Source: Candidatus Hydrogenedentota bacterium (GTDB taxonomy: Bacteria; Hydrogenedentota; Hydrogenedentia; Hydrogenedentales; SLHB01). Taken from it: DNA of 64,000 nucleotides. A program made the position numbers and the translations under genes. Every line of letters starts with the position of its first letter. Positions within the stretch are counted from its first letter, which is position 1. The notes beneath the pieces were generated by a model that was not told where the DNA came from, made no database searches, and saw nothing but the letters and a program-made list of their open reading frames with translations. The DNA lies in contig BTVY01000021.1 in the NCBI GenBank assembly GCA_045863335.1, positions 32,001-96,000 of the forward strand, in the 5' to 3' direction. Positions 8,186 to 50,017 of this stretch are shown here, one piece after another.

Positions 8186-8283
8186 GGACGGTTTCCTCGT
8201 TAAGTTGATTGATGTCAGTAGAGTCTCGCACGAGAGCGTCGGAGAATCAACGTGCGGGATATCGATGGCCTCTGAGGGGGCCT

Positions 8284-8370
8284 GAGGTGCCATGGCCTTC
8301 CAGGCCATGTCTTCGAGGTGTCATGGGCATCCTGCCCTTGAGCCACACGGGCGGGACGCCCGTGTCTTGA
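8284..8370. repeat. Cluster of REP-like palindromes (CATGGGCATCCTGCCC / CACGGGCGGGACGCCCGTG family)
   Basis: gaggtgccatggccttccaggccatgtcttcgaggtgtcatgggcatcctgccc...cacgggcgggacgcccgtg; the same modules occur at 34981-35089. Confidence 0.8.
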
Positions 8371-8406
8371 GCATCCATGTTTACCGCGACTACTGCGTGG
8401 TGAATG

Positions 8407-31184: not shown

Positions 31185-32138
31185 CTACGAATGTTGAAGC
31201 GCCGCAATCGCGGCCTTCAAGACGGCTCCCGACGCGGCTAGTAGATTGCGTTCATCGCCCGGGAGCCCACAGTCTACAATTTCATCGACGCCGTTTTCGG
31301 AGACGATGCAGGGTACGCTGAGGCACACGCCGTTGAGGCCGTACTCCCCATCGAGGCGGGTGGAGACGGTCAGCACGCTGCGCTGGTTCCGGACGATCGC
31401 TTCCACGATGCGGACGAGGGCCATCCCCACGCCGAACCAGGTCGCGCCTTTGTAGTCGATGATGTGGTACGCCGAATTGCGGACCCGTTCTTCGATGCTT
31501 TTGCGCTCATCCATCCAGTTCTCGCACTTGTGGCAGGCGGGGCAGTACGCGTCGATGGGGATGCCCGCGAGGTGGGTCATGGACCACGCCGCGAATTCGC
31601 TGTCGCCGTGTTCGCCGAGCATGTAGGCATGCACGTTGTGGATGTCGACCCCGCAGTGTTCGCTAAGCAGATAGCGGAGCCGGGCGCTGTCGAGCACCGT
31701 ACCCGAACCGATGACACGCCCACGCGGCCAGCCCGATTGTTGGAGCGCCACGTAGGTCAGCACATCGACGGGGTTGGAAACGACGATGACGACGGCGCTG
31801 GACCCCTGGCCCACGATATCGCTCATAATCGTGCTCACGATCGCGGCGTTCTTCTTGAGCAGGTCCAACCGGCTTTCGCCCGGTTGCTGCGCCGCGCCTG
31901 CAGTAATGACGATCACCGATGCGTCCGCATAATCGGCGACCGTTCCCACGTGAAGAGAGAGACTGGGGTAGTAAGGCCTGCCGTGGCTCAGGTCGAGGAT
32001 CTGTCCCTGGGCGAGGCGCTCGTTCTTGTCGACAAGCGCGATCTCGCTGACGAGACCGCTCTGCGCGAGGGCGTAGGAGAAGGTGGACCCCACCGATCCC
32101 GCACCTACTACGACGACTTTGCGTTTACTTGATCGCAC
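31185..32138 (-). CDS. ldh: L-lactate dehydrogenase
   Basis: VGAGSVG, AGAAQQPGESRLDL (Gln specificity residue), SNPVD, GSGTVLDSAR, GEHGDS, KGAT. Confidence 0.93.
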   Translation of the reverse strand: MRSSKRKVVVVGAGSVGSTFSYALAQSGLVSEIALVDKNERLAQGQILDLSHGRPYYPSLSLHVGTVADYADASVIVITAGAAQQPGESRLDLLKKNAAIVSTIMSDIVGQGSSAVVIVVSNPVDVLTYVALQQSGWPRGRVIGSGTVLDSARLRYLLSEHCGVDIHNVHAYMLGEHGDSEFAAWSMTHLAGIPIDAYCPACHKCENWMDERKSIEERVRNSAYHIIDYKGATWFGVGMALVRIVEAIVRNQRSVLTVSTRLDGEYGLNGVCLSVPCIVSENGVDEIVDCGLPGDERNLLAASGAVLKAAIAALQHS

Positions 32139-37697: not shown

Positions 37698-39686
37698 TTA
37701 CTCCATCGTCTCGCGGATCGCCGCCAATACCCGCGGCACATCCGGCAGCGCGGCATATTCTAGAGCCGGATGATACGGCATGGGAATGTCCGCGCGCGCG
37801 ACCAGTTGCGGAGGCGCGAGGAAGAGGTCCCAGCGGGACGGGTCGGACGTCATCTCGGCGATGATGGCCTGGCCGAACCCGGTGGTGCGGGTATCTTCAT
37901 GGACAACGACCAAGCGTCCCGTCTTCTCGAGGCTTCGCGCGATGCACTGCCAGTCGCATGGCACGACGGTGCGGAGATCGATGACTTCACAGTCGACGCC
38001 TTCGGCCTCCGCCTGCTGCGCCGCCTCCAACAAGACCTCCATGCAATTTCCGTAGCTCACGAGTGTCACGTCTCCACCGGCGCGGCGAACGGCAGCCTTG
38101 CCAAACGGTAGACCGTCGAGTGCCTCTCCTACTGCCACGCGCTGCCGGAAGATATGCTTCGGCAACAGAATCATCGAAGGATCGTCGCCATGGATCGCGC
38201 TCCACAGCAGACCCGCCGCGTCCTCGGGCGTACTGGGAATAGCGATTCGAATGCCCGGGATATGCGCCAACAAGCCTTCATTGCTCTGGCTATGCCACAG
38301 GGCACCGCCCGGCAAATAGGCGCCATACGTTGCGATGATCGTCAAGGGGCAAGACCACGCCCCGTTCGAGCGCCAGCGCAAACAGGACGCGTGACTCATG
38401 AGCTGGTTTAAGGCGGGCGGCAGGAAGTCGATGAACTGCAATTCAAACACGGGCCGCATGCCCGCCGCGGCCATGCCGACGCCGGCACCGGCAATCGTTG
38501 CTTCGGCCAGCGGCGAATTGACGACACGACCCGGGAACTCCGTCGAGAGTCCCTTGGTCAACCCGAAGACCCCCCCGCGCGGGTCCGCGATATCTTCGCC
38601 GAAGAGTTGCACGCGCGCATCCGACGACAAGGCCGCGCGCAAGGTCTCGTTGACGGCCGCGACCATGGTCGTTTCCTTACCCAGGCGTACCGGCAAAGCG
38701 GGGCTGGACGCGGACGGCCCAAAGACATGCGTCTCGATGGTTCTGGGATCAGGTTCACTTGCGCGCTCGGCGCGTTGATAGTCGTCATCCACCTGCGCGA
38801 CGATTTCCGCCTGAGACGTTTCCCACGCTCCGGCAGAAATCAGCCCTTTCTCGATGCAATGCCTGGCAAGTTGGTCAATCGGATCGCGGCGCGACATGGC
38901 TTCGATTTCGTCAGCGGGCCGGTATACGCGATGGTCGTCGGACGACGTATGCGAACACAGCCGGTCCAATTCACACCACAACACGGTGGGGCCTTCTCCG
39001 GACCGCGCCCGCCGAACGGCAGCGCCGCCGGCCTGAAAGACGGCAAGGGGATCGCGACCGTCCACGGGCATTACATGCGCATCGTTCAATGCGCGCAGCT
39101 TATATGGAGTGAGATGCGCCGTGGGCGTGCTGATGCCGTAGCCATTGTCTTCGACCACGAAAACCACGGGGAGTTGTTCCTGCAACGCAAAGGCCACGGC
39201 CTCGTAGTACTCGCCCTGACGCGTCGCGGCGTCGCCGATCGTGCAAAGCACGACGCCGTCACGCTGGTTCAGCTTGAACGACCACGCGGTACCCACGGCT
39301 GGCAAACACTGCGAGCCCGTGGGCGTTGCGACGCTGAACACGTTGAGCGCGCGGTCGCTGTAGTGGCCCGGCATCATACGGCCGCCCGAACTCGACGCCG
39401 CCCGGGCATAGTAGGCGAGCGCCAAGTCGTAGCTTGAGATGCCCCGCGCCAATGCGAGCGGCCGGTCGCGATAGTATAAATACAGGTAGTCTTCGGGCTT
39501 CAGGTGATACGCGAGCGCGGCGAGCGGCTCATGCCCCATCGCCGAAACCTGGAACCAGCCTTTGCCCTGACGCAATAGCACGCCTTCCCGGCGGTCCCCT
39601 TCGCGAGACAGGAACATGAGTTTCAGGAATTCGACTTCGGGGAGTCTGCGGATCTGTTCGTTCAGAAGTTTGGATTCACTGCTCAC
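37698..39686 (-). CDS. 2-oxoacid (probably branched-chain) dehydrogenase E1, fused alpha/beta
   Basis: GHE, YYRD, GDAA..EDN ThDP motif, HTSSDD; beta part GEDI..GGVF, PLAEATI, HSQS. Confidence 0.9.
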   Translation of the reverse strand: MSSESKLLNEQIRRLPEVEFLKLMFLSREGDRREGVLLRQGKGWFQVSAMGHEPLAALAYHLKPEDYLYLYYRDRPLALARGISSYDLALAYYARAASSSGGRMMPGHYSDRALNVFSVATPTGSQCLPAVGTAWSFKLNQRDGVVLCTIGDAATRQGEYYEAVAFALQEQLPVVFVVEDNGYGISTPTAHLTPYKLRALNDAHVMPVDGRDPLAVFQAGGAAVRRARSGEGPTVLWCELDRLCSHTSSDDHRVYRPADEIEAMSRRDPIDQLARHCIEKGLISAGAWETSQAEIVAQVDDDYQRAERASEPDPRTIETHVFGPSASSPALPVRLGKETTMVAAVNETLRAALSSDARVQLFGEDIADPRGGVFGLTKGLSTEFPGRVVNSPLAEATIAGAGVGMAAAGMRPVFELQFIDFLPPALNQLMSHASCLRWRSNGAWSCPLTIIATYGAYLPGGALWHSQSNEGLLAHIPGIRIAIPSTPEDAAGLLWSAIHGDDPSMILLPKHIFRQRVAVGEALDGLPFGKAAVRRAGGDVTLVSYGNCMEVLLEAAQQAEAEGVDCEVIDLRTVVPCDWQCIARSLEKTGRLVVVHEDTRTTGFGQAIIAEMTSDPSRWDLFLAPPQLVARADIPMPYHPALEYAALPDVPRVLAAIRETME

Positions 39687-43201: not shown

Positions 43202-44074
43202 GTGAACTCCATCGTATCCAATCCGTACTCGAATGACGAGATCCCCTGGGTCAAGGGAAACCTGCACGCTCATACCACGAACAGCGACGGCAAGCGAAGT
43301 CCCCAGGTGGTGGTGGATACCTATGCCGCCCGCGGCTATGGATTCCTGACCATCAGCGATCACGACTACTTGACGGACCCGGCGACCCTGCGCGATCACG
43401 GGATGACCCTGATTCCGGGCAACGAAGTCACGGCAAGGGGCCCGCACGTGCTGCACATCGGCGCGTCACAGCTACTCGATCCCGATCCCGACCGCCAAAC
43501 GGTGCTCAACCAGATTGTCGATTCAGGAGAACTCGCTATCATCGCTCATCCCAACTGGGAAGACGATTTCTCGCACTGTCCCCAGGCCGCGCTGGAATCC
43601 TGGCGCGGCTACATGGGAATTGAAATCTACAACGGCGTCGTTCGCCGGTTGACGGGAAGCCCATTGGCGACGGACCGGTGGGACCGATTGTTGGGCCTTG
43701 GGCGCCGCGTGTGGGGTTTCGCCCACGACGACAGCCATCGCGACGGCGATGACGAGCTGGCCTGGATCATGGTGCAGACGGAGTATCGCGATGCAGCGGC
43801 AATCATGACTGCGATCCGGCAAGGGCGCTTCTATGCCAGCACCGGGGTCGAGATCGAAGGAATCCGCGTGTGCGGAAATACGATCGCCGTGCGAACACGC
43901 AACGCGGAGCGCATCGTCGTCCATTCCGATTTTGGCCGCCGCCAAGCGGCCGTCGACGACACCTGTATTTCCTTCACCGTCCCGGAAACGGGCGCGATCA
44001 CGTACGTTCGATTTGAATGCTGGGGGCCGGGTGACGCGATGGCGTGGACGCAACCGTTCTTCCTGAATCCCTAG
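43202..44074 (+). CDS. PHP-domain (CehA/McbA-like) metallohydrolase
   Basis: KGNLHAHTTNSDG, SDHD, GNE, AHP, EIYNG, DDSH, AWTQPF. Confidence 0.88.
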   Translation: MNSIVSNPYSNDEIPWVKGNLHAHTTNSDGKRSPQVVVDTYAARGYGFLTISDHDYLTDPATLRDHGMTLIPGNEVTARGPHVLHIGASQLLDPDPDRQTVLNQIVDSGELAIIAHPNWEDDFSHCPQAALESWRGYMGIEIYNGVVRRLTGSPLATDRWDRLLGLGRRVWGFAHDDSHRDGDDELAWIMVQTEYRDAAAIMTAIRQGRFYASTGVEIEGIRVCGNTIAVRTRNAERIVVHSDFGRRQAAVDDTCISFTVPETGAITYVRFECWGPGDAMAWTQPFFLNP

Positions 44075-44180
44075 TCAATTCTACATGGTCCGCAAGGGCC
44101 GACGGCCTACCAATCCGTATGTTCGGAATGAAAAATCCAACCATATTGTAGGTATCACTGCATCAATCGTGGACCGATAG

Positions 44181-44798
<618 letters not shown>

Positions 44799-44864
44799 CT
44801 CCCGCCTGTTGCCCGGAGCGATGCGTTGGCTCGAAAACACCGTTAGGTACGTACGGAGGACAAA

Positions 44865-46289
44865 ATGCGGAAAGATCTCAGTCCAAAAGATGTGGTCGAC
44901 CTCATAAAGAAGGAAGAGGTCAAGTTCGTCGATATCCGGTTCATGGACTTCCCGGGTTTGATGCAACACTTCTCGATCCCGGCCCGTGAATTGAGCGAGG
45001 ATACCTTCGAGGATGGCCTCGGGTTCGACGGATCGAGCATCCGGGGCTGGCAGGCCATCAACGAGAGCGACATGCTCGTACTGCCGGATCCGAAGACGGC
45101 GACCATCGACCCCTTCTCGGAAATCAAGACCCTCATTTTGTACTCGAATATCCTTGACCCGATTACGAAAGAGCGGTACAGCCGTTGCCCGCGTTGCATC
45201 GCGCAGAAGGCCGAAAACTACATGGTCTCGACCGGCCTTGCCGACACCGCATATATGGGGCCGGAAGCGGAGTTCTTCGTATTCGACAACGTTCAGTACG
45301 ACATCAATTCGAATTCGGCGTTCCACGTAGTCGACAGCGCGGAAGGCATCTGGAACAGCGGCCGTGACGAAGAGCCCAATCTGGGGTACAAGCTGCGCCA
45401 CAAGGAAGGGTACTTCCCGGTTCCGCCGTCCGACTCCCTTCAGGACCTCCGCAACGAGATGGTCGACACCATGCTCAAGTGCGGGCTGAATGTGGAATGC
45501 CACCACCATGAAGTGGCGACCGCCGGACAGTGCGAGATCGATCTGCGGTTTGACAGCCTGACGCTCATGGCCGACATGATGACCATGTACAAGTACATCA
45601 TCAAGAACACGGCCAAGGCGCACAACAAGACCGTCACCTTCATGCCGAAGCCGCTCTACGCGGACAACGGCTCCGGGATGCACACCCATATCAGCCTTTG
45701 GAAGGGCGGCAAGCCGCTCTTCGCGGGAGACAAGTACGCCGGCCTGAGCCAGGAAGCCTTGTGGGGCATCGGCGGCCTGCTCAAACACGCGCCCGCGCTG
45801 GTCGCGATCACGAACCCCACGGTGAATTCGTACAAGCGCCTCGTGCCGGGTTACGAAGCCCCGGTCAACCTGGCCTACTCGAGCCGGAATCGCAGCGCCT
45901 GCTGCCGAATCCCCATGTACTCGCCCAGCCCGAAGGCCAAACGCATCGAGTTCCGCGTGCCGGATCCGTCGTGCAACCCGTATCTCGCGTTCTCCGCGCT
46001 GCTCATGGCCGTCATCGACGGTATCCAGAACAAGATCGATCCGGGTTCCCCGATGGACAAGGACCTCTACGACCTGCCGGCCGAAGAGAAGGCCCTCATC
46101 CCGCAGACGCCGGGAAGCCTGGGCGAAGCGCTGGACGCCCTGGAAAAGGATCACGAGTTCCTGCTTCGGGGGGATGTGTTCACGAAGGACGTGATCGACA
46201 CTTGGATCAGCTACAAGCGGGACAAAGAAGTGCTGCCCATGAGCCTGCGCCCGCACCCGTACGAGTTCTACTTGTACTACGACGTCTAA
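44865..46289 (+). CDS. glnA: Glutamine synthetase type I (beta, adenylylatable)
   Basis: [53 protein letters not shown] adenylylation site. Confidence 0.97.
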
Positions 46290-46315
46290 GCCGTAACTAC
46301 ATCTGCAAAATCGAG

Positions 46316-46356
46316 CGGGGTGGCAACGATACCGTTGCCACCCCGTCTGTTTTTTG
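46316..46356 (+). terminator. Rho-independent terminator of glnA
   Basis: cggggtggcaacg-atac-cgttgccaccccg followed by a T run. Confidence 0.85.
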
Positions 46357-46486
46357 ACTTGCCCCGCGGCAAGGGCCCCAGCCGTCTCGAAACCCGCCGG
46401 GCCCGCTGACGGTCCAATTGATTAGACGCATGGCCGGAATCGCCAGTATCTGCCACGATCCGAGGCGCTGTACAAGGCATAGGAAC

Positions 46487-46521
46487 AAAAAAAGGGCCGA
46501 AACGCATACACGCTTCGGCCC
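46487..46521 (-). terminator. Minus-strand terminator closing the micropeptide array
   Basis: Minus strand gggccgaagcg-tgtatg-cgtttcggccc then TTTTTTT; a second GC hairpin lies at 46535-46569. Confidence 0.7.
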
Positions 46522-46581
46522 ACACTCAACTCGCCCGGCCCCTCCGGACAGCAATCCGGGAAGGGCCGGTAGAATGCGCGA

Positions 46582-46644
46582 TTAGAGTACCTGGTACAGA
46601 ACGACCAGAATGATCAGCCACCAGATCCAAGAGAACCAGAACAT
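46582..46644 (-). CDS. Trp-rich hydrophobic micropeptide 1 (20 aa): MFWFSWIWWLIILVVLYQVL
   Basis: AAGGGAGG SD; 5' hairpin cgctcc-gaa-ggggcg; TACACT -10 at 46696-46701; homologous to peptides 2 and 3. Confidence 0.8.
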   Translation of the reverse strand: MFWFSWIWWLIILVVLYQVL

Positions 46645-47031
46645 GTTTTCGACCTCCCTTCTAGATGAGATGTGACGCCGCCCCTTCGGAGCGATAGTGT
46701 AAGACACCGGGGATACCCACATGTATCCCTAAGCACCATACAACCTTGAATCAATTTCGTTTCACCGTCCGGTACCCTGGTATTCGGGTTTCGCACGCAT
46801 CTCGTCAATCGCCGACCCACGCGTTTCGAAACCTGTCGGCCGTTTGCCGGGTCCAACTATCAGATTCGACGGAACCACCAGAATCCGGAAGCTGCAACAA
46901 AAGACAGTTTAAACATTCTCGCTGGCAATTTTAAAGGGGTCGAAGCATTGGCCTGCCCCGACCCCAGAATCTGCGCCGAATTGTGAGCCAAATGGGCCAC
47001 TAGTGCCAGCGCAACGCGTATTCGGTTCTAG

Positions 47032-47091
47032 TTAGAGAACCTGATACAGAAGTACGATGATCAAAATCCACCACATCCACCACCAAAACAT
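47032..47091 (-). CDS. Trp-rich hydrophobic micropeptide 2 (19 aa): MFWWWMWWILIIVLLYQVL
   Basis: AAGGGAGG SD; 5' hairpin gtcactcc-gtgag-ggagtggc; downstream terminator-like hairpin at 46931-46965. Confidence 0.8.
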   Translation of the reverse strand: MFWWWMWWILIIVLLYQVL

Positions 47092-47208
47092 AGTTCAAAC
47101 CTCCCTTCATGTTAACGTTTACGCCACTCCCTCACGGAGTGACGAAGATGCACAACACTTGATTTGATTGAACTGTATCTTGCCTTCTCTGAAGGCAAGA
47201 GGGCAGGG

Positions 47209-47307
47209 TTAAAGCACTTCGTACAGAATGACGATTGCGATGATCCACCAGATCCAGGTGAACGGGCTCAAGAGCCACCAGAACGCGGCTTTGGGCGTAC
47301 CTTTCAT
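47209..47307 (-). CDS. Trp-rich hydrophobic micropeptide 3 (32 aa): MKGTPKAAFWWLLSPFTWIWWIIAIVILYEVL
   Basis: AAAGGAGG SD; promoter TTGAAA(47440-47435)-17-TACAAT(47417-47412); hairpin tcttgccttc/gaaggcaaga at 47178-47200 just after the stop. Confidence 0.8.
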   Translation of the reverse strand: MKGTPKAAFWWLLSPFTWIWWIIAIVILYEVL

Positions 47308-47635
47308 GAGTCAGACCTCCTTTCCTGCATCTCCAATCAGTCCGCTGAATCTCGGGTCCCCGGTCCTCCGCAGAACCTCACCCGAGATTGGTCTCGTGAA
47401 AACCAAGGCAGATTGTATACGAGGTTTCGAGTATTTTCAAGCCCCTTCACACCTTTCGCAGCACTGCCTTGGGCCGGATCGAAACATCTTGCGGGTACGG
47501 GCACACTATAGCACAAACTGTGGGCATCCTCAATAGAGAATATGTGGACAGCCGCGTCACGATAACGGTTTCGGGACCCGCTTCGCATCCCCGCGAAACC
47601 ATGGAGGCGTGGACCCGGTCAAACTCCTAAAGCGA

Positions 47636-47680
47636 AACAAAAAAAGTGTGGCGAATCCGCCGTGGATTCGCCACAAAAAC
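47636..47680. terminator. Hairpin terminator downstream of micropeptide 4
   Basis: aaaaaaaa-gtgtggcgaatcc-gccgt-ggattcgccac-aaaaa; the U tract reads on the minus strand. Confidence 0.8.
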
Positions 47681-47706
47681 TGCTAAGGAAAATGAGGTGT
47701 CCGGTA

Positions 47707-47793
47707 CTAGACCTGAAGGTTCCAACCGGCCTCGAAGAACACCGCAAGGATGTACCATACGGCTACCCAAAACCACCAGAAAAGCAAAAACAT
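47707..47793 (-). CDS. Trp-rich hydrophobic micropeptide 4 (28 aa): MFLLFWWFWVAVWYILAVFFEAGWNLQV
   Basis: GAAAGGAG SD; promoter TTGTTT-18-TACAGT (47874-47845); shares the 12-mer tcgttgtttctc with unit 5. Confidence 0.78.
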   Translation of the reverse strand: MFLLFWWFWVAVWYILAVFFEAGWNLQV

Positions 47794-47971
47794 AGCCTTT
47801 TTCTCCTTTCGTTTCTACGAATGGTCGAACAGCACTAGACCCTAACTGTAGAGCTATCGGACCGGGAGAAACAACGAAGCATCGTCAACTGCTTCTCCTT
47901 CCGCTTCCGACTGGCGCCCACGCGACTAGCATCGCACAGCGCCAAGCGTACCTGGGTCTAAGCTTCCAGCC

Positions 47972-48052
47972 TTAGAACGGGTAAAGCCCAGCGTAGAAGA
48001 CGTTCCACACCAACCACCAGAAAAGCCAGAATCCCCACAGCAAAAGAAACAT
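47972..48052 (-). CDS. Trp-rich hydrophobic micropeptide 5 (26 aa): MFLLLWGFWLFWWLVWNVFYAGLYPF
   Basis: AAAGGAGG SD; promoter TTGTTT-17-(TGc)TATACT (48138-48110); 5' hairpin gctcc-atgg-ggggc. Confidence 0.8.
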   Translation of the reverse strand: MFLLLWGFWLFWWLVWNVFYAGLYPF

Positions 48053-48268
48053 ACCTAGACCTCCTTTCATGTTGATCGTTCTTCGTTGCCCCCCATGGAG
48101 CGTGGCGACAGTATAGCATAAGAGATCCTGAGAAACAACGAGTTGTGGGAGAAAATCTCTCGTACCCATGGTGCTGTGCCCCAGGGCCATACGTTCACAG
48201 CAAATTCGAAATCCGAAGCACGAAATCCGAAGCTAATTCCAAGGATCGGAACCTGAATGGATGCCCCC

Positions 48269-48358
48269 TGTGGCTTGGGCGTCCTCGCCCAAGAGGTCTG
48301 CCGGGGTAGCCCGCAGGTTACATCCCCAGGAGCTTGTGCGAGGACGCCCAAGCCATGG
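48269..48358. repeat. REP-like inverted pair, preceded by heptamer repeats (cgaaatc/cgaagca, 48208-48234)
   Basis: gtggcttgggcgtcctcgcccaag ... cttgtgcgaggacgcccaagccat. Confidence 0.75.
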
Positions 48359-48448
48359 CTACTGTCTCGAAATGGGACTGGTCTCCGGCATGGTTTTTAG
48401 GGCATTATCGGCGTTGATGAGCCAATCGCGGCCACGGAGAATCTCACG

Positions 48449-49963
48449 GTGAACGCCAATCCGCCCAATATCCTCTTCATTATGACCGACCAGCAACGCG
48501 CGGACGCGTTGCAAGCAGCGGGGAATCCCCTCATCTTCACCCCCAATATGGACCGGTTGGCCGCGCGGGGCGTCCGGTTTACGCGCGCGTATTCCACCTG
48601 CCCGGTCTGCGTTCCGGCCCGGTACACCATCCGGACCGGGCGGGAACCCCACACCACGGGGGTCTATTCCAACGCGGCGCCGGACCCGGTCGAAGGGCAG
48701 CCGGCCGCCATGGAGGACCGCTGCGGACCCTACCTGGCGCGAACGATGACCGGCCTCGGCTACCGGACCTTCGGGATTGGGAAGTTCCACTCCCAGCCCC
48801 GCGACGAAGACCTGGGATACGAGGTCCATCTCCACAGCGAAGAACTGTTCGGATCGCCGGAGGACCGGAAGAAGGACGCCTATTGCCGGTTCATCGCGGG
48901 CGAGCATCCCGCGTTCTCCTATATCGAGGATTATATGGGCGAGCGAACGGAAATGTACTACATGCCCCAACAGAGCCCCCTTCCGCCGGAGCTGACGGTA
49001 GAATCGTGGGCGGCCGACCGCGCCGTGGAACAAATACAGTCCTCGGATTCGCGTCCGTACTTTGGCTTTGTATCCTTCATCGGGCCTCACCCGCCGCTGG
49101 CGCCGCCCATCCCTTTCAACCGGATGTACGATCCCGACGAGATGCCTAACCCCATCCGGGGTGACATTGCAGTCGATCACATGGACGAACAGATCCCCTG
49201 GATGAACCACGCCGTGTGGGCGGAGGACATCAACGATGCCCACGCGCGCGTGCTTCGGGCGCGATACTATGGCGAGATCTCCTATATCGACCAGTGCCTG
49301 GGCCGCATCCTGGACGCGGTAGACGCCCGCGACGACGCTGCCAACACGCTGATCTGCTTCTACTCCGACCACGGCGACCACCTCGGCGACCACCATGGCT
49401 GGCAGAAGGAGAGCTATTTCGACGTATCCTGCCGCGTGCCGTTCCTGGTGAGTTGGCTGGACCGGCTCGACGCCGGAGTCGTGAGCGACAATCTGGTATG
49501 CCTGACCGACCTCTTCGGCATCGCCACCACCGCCGCCGGCGCGCCGGACCTGCGAGACGGCTCGGACATTCTGGGCGCACTATGGGGCACGGCAACGCCG
49601 CGCGAGCGGGTCATCGGCCTCTACGGCACACCGGGCACGCCCCGATTCAAAGTCATGGTCCGCGAAGGCGACTGGAAATACGTCTACTTCGCGAACGGCG
49701 GTACGGAACAACTCTTCAACCTAACCGAGGATCCCCACGAGCTGCGGCAACGCGCGCAGGACAAGCCAGACGTCGTCGCACGACTCCGCGCAACCGCCGT
49801 GGAGGCCGTAAACGTGCCCAACGCGAACCGCGCCCTCGACGCCGGCGGCCTTGTCGCCTTCCCCTTCGAAGCCCGCCCCTTCCGCCGTATCGTACAGATG
49901 GACCGGTCCCGCGACATAACCGGCTTTCCGGAGAACCCGGGGGACCTGTTTGCCGGAACCTAG
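48449..49963 (+). CDS. Cytoplasmic sulfatase (choline-sulfatase-like)
   Basis: PNILFIMTDQQRAD, CVPAR, GKFH, GPHPP, SDHGD. Confidence 0.9.
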   Translation: MNANPPNILFIMTDQQRADALQAAGNPLIFTPNMDRLAARGVRFTRAYSTCPVCVPARYTIRTGREPHTTGVYSNAAPDPVEGQPAAMEDRCGPYLARTMTGLGYRTFGIGKFHSQPRDEDLGYEVHLHSEELFGSPEDRKKDAYCRFIAGEHPAFSYIEDYMGERTEMYYMPQQSPLPPELTVESWAADRAVEQIQSSDSRPYFGFVSFIGPHPPLAPPIPFNRMYDPDEMPNPIRGDIAVDHMDEQIPWMNHAVWAEDINDAHARVLRARYYGEISYIDQCLGRILDAVDARDDAANTLICFYSDHGDHLGDHHGWQKESYFDVSCRVPFLVSWLDRLDAGVVSDNLVCLTDLFGIATTAAGAPDLRDGSDILGALWGTATPRERVIGLYGTPGTPRFKVMVREGDWKYVYFANGGTEQLFNLTEDPHELRQRAQDKPDVVARLRATAVEAVNVPNANRALDAGGLVAFPFEARPFRRIVQMDRSRDITGFPENPGDLFAGT

Positions 49964-50017
49964 TGTCCTGAGCCCTAAGTTCCTTCTCAAGAATCTTGTG
50001 TGACGTGTTGGTCAAAG

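Follow-up and report, generated by a model that had tools for sequence, protein, structure and literature searches.

Lineage-restricted tryptophan-rich micropeptide genes in tandem beside glnA in Candidatus Hydrogenedentota

Results

Five short Trp-rich genes lie tail-to-tail with glnA

The 64,000-nt stretch of DNA analysed here (the window; positions 32,001 to 96,000 of contig BTVY01000021.1, assembly GCA_045863335.1) derives from a Candidatus Hydrogenedentota bacterium and carries an array of five very short minus-strand open reading frames (ORFs), U1 to U5, at 46582-48052, which encode Trp-rich micropeptides. The array is flanked on one side by the plus-strand genes glnB-glnA, encoding proteins with P-II and Gln-synt domains, with glnA convergent (tail-to-tail) to it, and on the other side by a sulfatase gene. 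An initial annotation, made from the letters of the sequence, had spelled out the five peptides, and reading of the sequence together with the ORF list of positions 46000-48700 recovered all of them exactly (Table 1; gene coordinates count the stop codon). Their content of four or five Trp each, their near lack of charge, their strong Shine-Dalgarno (SD) sequences and the codons quoted for the LY[QE]VL tail were likewise found as described. Trp makes up 16-26% of each peptide, and overall composition is almost entirely Phe, Trp, Ile, Leu and Val. Charged residues are confined to Lys2, Lys6 and Glu30 in U3 and Glu21 in U4, giving net charges of +1 and -1, respectively, and of 0 for U1, U2 and U5, which have none. 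None of the peptides is amphipathic, as a polar face is absent. An AAGGAG/GGAGG SD is located 6-9 nt upstream of the ATG in all five genes.

Table 1. Micropeptide genes and associated transcription signals in the window
Feature	Position	Strand	Description
U1, short type A gene	46582-46644	-	20 aa, 4 Trp, C-terminus LYQVL
U2, short type A gene	47032-47091	-	19 aa, 5 Trp, C-terminus LYQVL
U3, long type A gene	47209-47307	-	32 aa, 5 Trp, N-terminus MKGTPK..., C-terminus LYEVL
U4, type B gene	47707-47793	-	28 aa, 5 Trp, C-terminus ...VFFEAGWNLQV
U5, type C gene	47972-48052	-	26 aa, 5 Trp, C-terminus ...YAGLYPF
U5 promoter	48110-48138	-	-35 TTGTTT (48138-48133), 17-nt spacer, extended -10 TGC-TATACT (48118-48110)
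U3 promoter	47412-47440	-	TTGAAA-17-TACAAT, about 100 nt before the ATG; recurs at equal distance in G004 and G047
Upstream promoter-like site, possibly a second U3 promoter	47505-47533	-	TTGAGG-17-TATAGT with TG, about 90 nt beyond the U3 promoter; comparable in G004 and G048
Putative -10 element before U1	46696-46701	-	TACACT; TATAAT in G004; no clear -35
Stem-loop between type C and type B genes	47857-47910	-	54 nt, nearly invariant in three genera
Intrinsic terminator after U4	47637-47675	-	12-bp stem and U-run, from the terminator scan
Hairpin after U3	47179-47199	-	9 bp, no U-run
Hairpin after U2	46927-46965	-	GGGGTCG...CGACCCC followed by TTTAAAATT; weak terminator candidate
Intrinsic terminator after U1	46484-46521	-	12-bp stem and U-run; conserved in G003 and G004

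The micro-genes are protein-coding and under strong purifying selection

The whole genome (G000; 6.75 Mb, 60% G+C) contains 396 ATG-started ORFs of 15-45 aa with at least four Trp. Ten of these, two of them nested, are also preceded by an SD and hold at most three charged residues, and the ten include all five genes of the array plus a sixth, a paralogue on contig C31. A second, looser scan retained 11 of 1762 SD-preceded ORFs (12-50 aa) at a hydrophobic fraction of at least 0.75 and two or more Trp; six of the 11 belong to the family and one more, on contig C13, is a possible relative. Since few other ORFs of the genome pass the filters for Trp, SD and charge, U1-U5 are beyond what chance would produce.

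Variation of the shared tail at mostly synonymous positions had been taken as a sign of selection on the peptide, and comparison of orthologues bears this out. Pooled Nei-Gojobori (NG86) estimates over orthologous pairs gave a ratio of non-synonymous to synonymous substitution rates (dN/dS) of 0.085 for G000 and G004, a genome of the same genus (42 synonymous and 22 non-synonymous changes in 134 codons), of 0.084 for G047 versus G048, of 0.10 for G015 versus G047 and of 0.155 for G000 versus G021, three of the seven comparisons with G000 being saturated at synonymous sites. Length differences between orthologues are whole codons throughout, and frameshifted orthologues were not seen in the three genera carrying the array (g1, g11 and g17); a possible decayed copy of type A in genome G051 of a fourth genus is a single case. 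Conservation runs along the whole length of the peptides, also outside the Trp residues, and U1 is nearly invariant among the genomes of its own genus, g1. We conclude that U1-U5 are genuine protein-coding genes under strong purifying selection.

The peptides fall into four types that occur in few genera

Initially, the five peptides had been sorted into two subfamilies. This grouping did not hold, as alignment across genera resolves four orthologous types, designated A to D. Type A ends in LY[QE]VL, comprises a long form with an MKGxPK N-terminus as well as short forms, and varies between genera from one to four copies. Type B ends in VF.E/Q.GGW.N and type C in Y[AS][GTS].YPF, while type D contains G[AG]G[LF]..P.L. 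Peptide lengths in the family range from 17 to 45 residues (19-32 in the window). Genera g1 and g11 share the gene order C-B-A(n), and g17 has D-C-B-A. Orthologues of U5, the type C gene, are present in G004, G002, G015, G047, G048, G049 and G021.

Conservation among relatives, which had been put forward for testing, was confirmed by profile searches, which placed the family in three genera, with a diverged set in a fourth. Run against 41 relatives, a profile built from the five peptides matched each of the five further genomes of genus g1, and its weak match in G015 proved to be a full array. A profile of 19 sequences then detected the family in 12 of the 54 genomes of the taxonomic family and in 12 of the 135 genomes of the phylum, all of them in g1 (6/6, G000 included), g11 (5/5) and g17 (1/1). 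A thirteenth genome, G043, matched at E<=1 and was left out of the count, since it holds no family ORF; for the same reason, weak profile matches in G036 and G039 were dropped. These counts are lower bounds, because a diverged set in G051 (genus g41) escaped the profile and was recognized by synteny only; it comprises two diverged members, together with an A-type copy that may be decayed, and is convergent with glnA. The two micro-genes (28 and 27 aa) lie on the minus strand at 1800-2500 of locus L140 (contig C530) and have TGGTATACT promoters; the same locus holds a GTG-started frame reading AWWWWIFIL... that lacks the usual short ending. No family-like ORF was found within 1.5 kb of glnA in five other genera. 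Among public contigs, seven of nine array-bearing records are titled Candidatus Hydrogenedentota and two are titled otherwise, and matches of a pattern scan in three Parabacteroides records and three metagenome contigs were discarded as chance, no family ORF being present. The family appears restricted to few genera of Hydrogenedentota.

The initial annotation did not recognize the family, and neither did the databases. Searches of Pfam and NCBIfam at E<=10 returned noise only (TatA, 2.2; DUF2897, 3.1; DUF5472, 2.2), as did PADLOC at the same threshold, profiles of PDB chains at E<=10 gave no match, and ESM Atlas held no usable match for U3 or the type D peptide. Among 1.84 billion representative proteins, a long type A profile found five matches at E<=0.001; four have 29-31 aa, and the fifth, of 85 aa, aligned over its last 22 residues only. 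Cluster look-up yielded 'hypothetical protein' as the sole source name, for one member of one cluster. The exact U3 sequence is present, unnamed, in a collection of 15 billion proteins. In the literature listings and opening parts of abstracts that we searched, no description of such Trp-rich peptides was found. By sequence comparison, the peptides thus appear to be a previously undescribed family that belongs to none of the described ones.

Transcription signals suggest fewer units than genes

The array had been proposed to consist of independently transcribed genes, with -35/-10 pairs before units 3 to 5 and hairpins after units 1 to 4. Part of this stands. The promoters of U5 and U3 are conserved, that of U5 in three genera: a CA.AA..CGTTGT(A/T)TC block that overlaps its -35 is conserved there together with TRTGCTATACT, giving a type C promoter motif of TTGT(T/A)T-17-TGCTATACT. 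The corresponding motif of the long type A genes across genera is TTGAAA-17/18-TACAAT, and that of type D in three genera is TTGACA-17-TGCTAGACT. No -10/-35 pair conserved across genera was found before the type B gene U4 or the second type A gene U2 (A2), and a promoter-like match before U2 overlaps the start codon of that gene. Hairpins do follow units 1 to 4, but true terminators with a U-run were found only after U4 and U1, those after U3 and U2 lacking a clean U-run. At the place of the U4 terminator, G004 and G015 have a hairpin of other sequence with a T-run, and the hairpin after U2, not called by the terminator scan, has a counterpart at the matching place in G003 and G004. The spacer between U3 and U2 is strongly structured (fold z = -4.17; none of 200 shuffles folds equally well). 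Just 3' of glnA, a bidirectional terminator hairpin at 46307-46354, with a U-run on both strands, parts glnA from the U1 unit. U4 is probably co-transcribed with U5, as a conserved -10/-35 pair is missing before it, and judging from these signals the likely transcription units are U5-U4 ([C-B]), U3-U2 ([A3-A2]), U1 ([A1]) and, for the paralogue on C31, [D].

The stem-loop between the type C and type B genes is more conserved than the flanking coding sequence in the three genera. Within it, an SD-like GGAAGGAGAAGC pairs with GUUGUUUCUCC, and CGTTGTTTC occurs both in its 3' arm and in the -35 region of the type C promoter. RNAalifold assigned 14 pairs with no compensatory change; the element is single-copy in the genome, and Rfam at E<=1 gave no match anywhere in 44000-50000, stem-loop included. 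Two other readings of it were rejected: a U4 promoter with TTGTTT as its -35, the -10 of which is not conserved, and an ORF that begins at an ATG in G000 and lacks a start in G004 and G015.

Contigs assembled from RNA libraries also lie on the array. Eleven RNA-type records hold part of the stretch, and four runs from four studies were compared, all of which contribute contigs there. Record 32 of run X6 covers 47839-48082 with no differences; from X2, record 13 spans 46398-47353, record 14 spans 47614-47913 and record 16 spans 47884-48038; records 18-24 of X5 are among the RNA contigs covering the units, with record 21 on the array. X2 and X5 have contigs on the array and none on the sulfatase gene, the uncovered part carrying no evidential weight, and contig depths (120 for X6 record 32; 3-15 for X6 records 25-28, 30 and 31) cannot rank genes. 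The contigs weakly indicate transcription of the array. High depth in bin 48141-48307 is due to a dispersed repeat in the spacer between array and sulfatase gene (48200-48355), which is built from a directly duplicated 13-mer and an inverted repeat with 23-bp arms; segments of this repeat are found 54 times over 32 contigs of the genome, in the manner of repetitive extragenic palindromic (REP) elements or miniature inverted-repeat transposable elements (MITEs).

A type D gene behind a regulator points to the history of the array

The sixth family member of G000 is a type D gene of 31 aa on the minus strand of contig C31 (about 38282-38377; 8283-8378 of locus L026), with a TTGACA-17-TAGACT promoter and a terminator of its own. 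Directly upstream of it lies the gene of a response regulator with excisionase-HTH and receiver domains (L026, 8564-9142). In G021, the orthologous regulator has 196 aa and combines an excisionase/MerR-type helix-turn-helix (HTH) with a receiver domain, and the array follows directly behind it. Type D is found directly downstream of the regulator orthologue in 10 of 11 loci of g1, g11 and g17, the eleventh being cut by a contig end, and in none of 19 loci from 15 other genera, though the regulator is retained there at 56-74% identity.

Linkage to glnA, which had been put forward for comparison with related genomes, holds for the window and reflects historical synteny. In several array-free genera, glnA and the regulator gene are direct neighbours, mostly convergent, with a gap of 163-320 nt in G065, G063, G067 and G020; because of this shared history, the position beside glnA is best read as inherited and is not evidently functional. 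A functional link was rejected, as the array of G021 (g17) lies near neither glnA nor a sulfatase gene and as the five other genera mentioned above have no family ORF downstream of glnA. Comparison of these layouts suggests an ancestral order regulator-D-C-B-A(n), convergent on glnA. In the simplest history, the micro-genes would have been born within a pair of convergent glnA and regulator genes and split later by rearrangement in g1 and g11, which would leave the present layout of G000, with C-B-A3-A2-A1 beside glnA and D behind the regulator on C31.

The array-bearing genera form no clean clade in single-gene trees. In a regulator tree, g1, g11 and g17 share an unresolved group with g8, g19 and g43, and support for this group is weak. 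In a quick GlnA tree, array-free g8 nests with g1 and g11; labelling of that tree by presence of the array needs at least three changes, one of them forced by well-supported branches. This pattern implies losses of the array or an unresolved phylogeny.

Discussion

We favour, at slightly better than even probability (about 0.55), the view that the array encodes a lineage-restricted set of Trp-rich, almost uncharged single-helix micropeptides that act in the membrane. The genes would be transcribed from sigma-70-type promoters with extended -10 elements, in the units proposed above, and translated from their strong SDs. Each peptide would form essentially one hydrophobic helix and insert into the cytoplasmic membrane with the N-terminus in and the C-terminus out, a predicted topology that follows from the restriction of Lys to the N-terminus and of Glu, Asp, Gln and Asn to the last residues, and that would line the inner interface with a Trp collar and place Tyr on the outer interface. 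The micropeptides, presumed non-toxic, may assemble together or serve as small subunits or modulators of a membrane partner. By analogy, they would work most like the small single-helix membrane proteins of bacteria, of which CydX, KdpF, AcrZ, MgtS and the PetN/PsbX type act as subunits or modulators of membrane complexes. With these they share a single hydrophobic helix of 17-40 aa, a strong SD, purifying selection and the lack of a cleavable signal. They differ from them in lying outside any membrane-complex operon, in the clustering of four types, in their extreme Trp content and in the lack of a family match, no CydX/KdpF-type hit being obtained with NCBIfam, Pfam or PDB chain profiles. 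In a more specific and rather improbable version, the four types together build a self-contained hetero-oligomeric assembly, a minimal Trp-collared helical bundle forming a channel or a membrane-organising scaffold. Its genes would have emerged de novo within the regulator-glnA spacer, expanded by duplication in tandem and remained under control of the regulator. Complex prediction for the long type A and type D peptides (score 0.03, mark 0.32) bears neither way.

Several points weigh against membrane micropeptides of this kind. At 17 aa, the shortest members fall below the usual length of a helix that crosses the membrane completely. Genus g8, nested between g1 and g11 by the GlnA tree, yielded no array, so that the array either is dispensable or has been lost repeatedly. 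The RNA contigs are assembled and carry neither strand nor ends, and carry-over of DNA into the libraries is possible. Finally, while coding, purifying selection, the conserved order, the four types, the linkage of regulator and type D and the lack of a known homologue rest on observation, the transcription units, the topology, membrane insertion and action, the partner or function and the lack of toxicity are what we infer, and the promoter scans used to weigh toxicity followed a sigma-70-like consensus only, so that an antisense RNA made from another promoter type would escape them.

Toxicity had been suggested for these genes from the start, as repeated short hydrophobic ORFs with promoters and terminators of their own are typical of type I toxin loci. 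Ibs/Sib and Ldr/Rdl of Escherichia coli are tandem type I toxins with hydrophobic ORFs of 18-35 aa, and the array shares with them the tandem arrangement of such ORFs, the promoters and terminators and 5' untranslated regions (UTRs), here of 45-100 nt. The peptides would then depolarise the membrane, and their translation would be kept down by an RNA antitoxin or by structure of their mRNAs, a reading that would also accommodate the varying copy number of type A, the lack of the array in g8 and other related genera, and hence its dispensability, and the small CUCC...GGGG hairpins with which the UTRs begin. However, a scan for the sigma-70-like consensus revealed no antisense RNA gene and no antisense promoter that is conserved: across six arrays, such sites numbered 15 on the sense strand versus 2 on the antisense strand, the latter at non-homologous places, and the only plus-strand terminator in the array is that of glnA. 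Nor did we find the SD to be sequestered, as it is no more paired than in shuffled sequences in the 5' UTRs of U5, U3, U1 and D (z = 0.23, -1.77, 1.06 and 0.85, respectively). None of these UTRs folds more stably than its shuffles, and their SD lies largely open or in weak pairs. The known systems further differ from the array in its four vertically inherited types, with fixed order and chromosomal positions across genera, dN/dS of about 0.1 and 16-26% Trp, and in the absence of any hidden Markov model match, with no toxin family (Hok, Ldr, Ibs, Fst, TisB and others) hit in Pfam or NCBIfam at E<=10. On the antisense, SD and inheritance results, the toxin hypothesis is weakened and we now regard it as unlikely.

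Exported hydrophobic peptides released with no leader, whether as a bacteriocin of several peptides, as a set akin to surfactants or modulins, or as a signal, are more doubtful still. Related leaderless Trp-rich peptides of 17-32 aa that start with Met-Phe and are encoded together do recall the four-peptide leaderless bacteriocins and the psm-alpha operon, and what the array has in common with aureocin A70, enterocin L50 and phenol-soluble modulin (PSM)-alpha is a single locus for three to five related peptides of 20-45 aa that lack a leader and are often Trp-rich. Those peptides, however, combine a cationic with an amphipathic character and come with linked exporters or immunity genes, whereas the array peptides are uncharged or net negative, uniformly hydrophobic without being amphipathic, and would be very insoluble. 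The loci have as neighbours genes for P-II, GlnA, sulfatases, a response regulator, a flavin mononucleotide (FMN)-binding protein and an aminotransferase, and no modifying enzyme, protease, ATP-binding cassette (ABC) exporter or immunity gene was found beside the loci of g1, g11 and g17, in line with what had been noted for the window, where P-II, GlnA and sulfatases are the neighbours. The same absence of modifying enzyme, protease and transporter near the loci examined speaks against precursors of ribosomally synthesized and post-translationally modified peptides (RiPPs) whose Trp or Tyr would be modified by enzymes encoded elsewhere. The conserved C-terminal motifs LYQVL, YPF and GGWN and the high Trp content would offer possible substrates, and several paralogues look precursor-like, but no division into leader and core is visible in what is one hydrophobic helix conserved throughout, and we consider this origin very improbable. 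Hardly credible, finally, are regulatory leader peptides or upstream ORFs that sense the supply of Trp-tRNA, and likewise a non-coding RNA locus in which the ORFs arose by chance. The array has a superficial likeness to trp-type attenuators, in that consecutive Trp codons precede hairpins or terminators; yet no structural gene comes after any of the terminators, U1 being followed by the 3' end of convergent glnA, the array is not near glnA in G021, amino acids outside Trp are conserved at dN/dS of about 0.1, and there is no Rfam match.

Small bacterial membrane proteins are a thinly charted class, and most annotation pipelines drop genes so short. What is unusual in the present case is the combination of four types of 17-45 residues, about one fifth of which are Trp, the costliest amino acid, with a fixed gene order, strong purifying selection and no detectable relative elsewhere, in a phylum that to our knowledge has no cultured member. 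If the four types assemble together, few multi-subunit membrane assemblies with dedicated genes would be smaller; if they are toxins, they would add a new type I-like family, from a phylum that is still unexplored. Placed between a regulator gene and glnA, which are direct neighbours in related genera, the array is also a tractable case of micro-gene birth and tandem diversification.

Further sequences with likeness to the family

Two further sequences in G000 resemble the family. In the long spacer between U2 and U1, a weak minus-strand ORF at 46860-46915 ends in ...SGFWWFRRI and shows repeat similarity to U1 and U3; its start is missing in G003 and the ORF is absent in G004, and it may be a decayed family copy. 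On contig C13, a stand-alone micro-gene at 84019-84108 (minus strand) encodes 29 aa with three Trp and a C-terminal ...AERRAVV. It has a TTGACA-17-TATAGT promoter, a strong SD and a terminator, and its single counterpart, at 63% identity, is in a genome of the same genus. A distant relationship to the family is possible.

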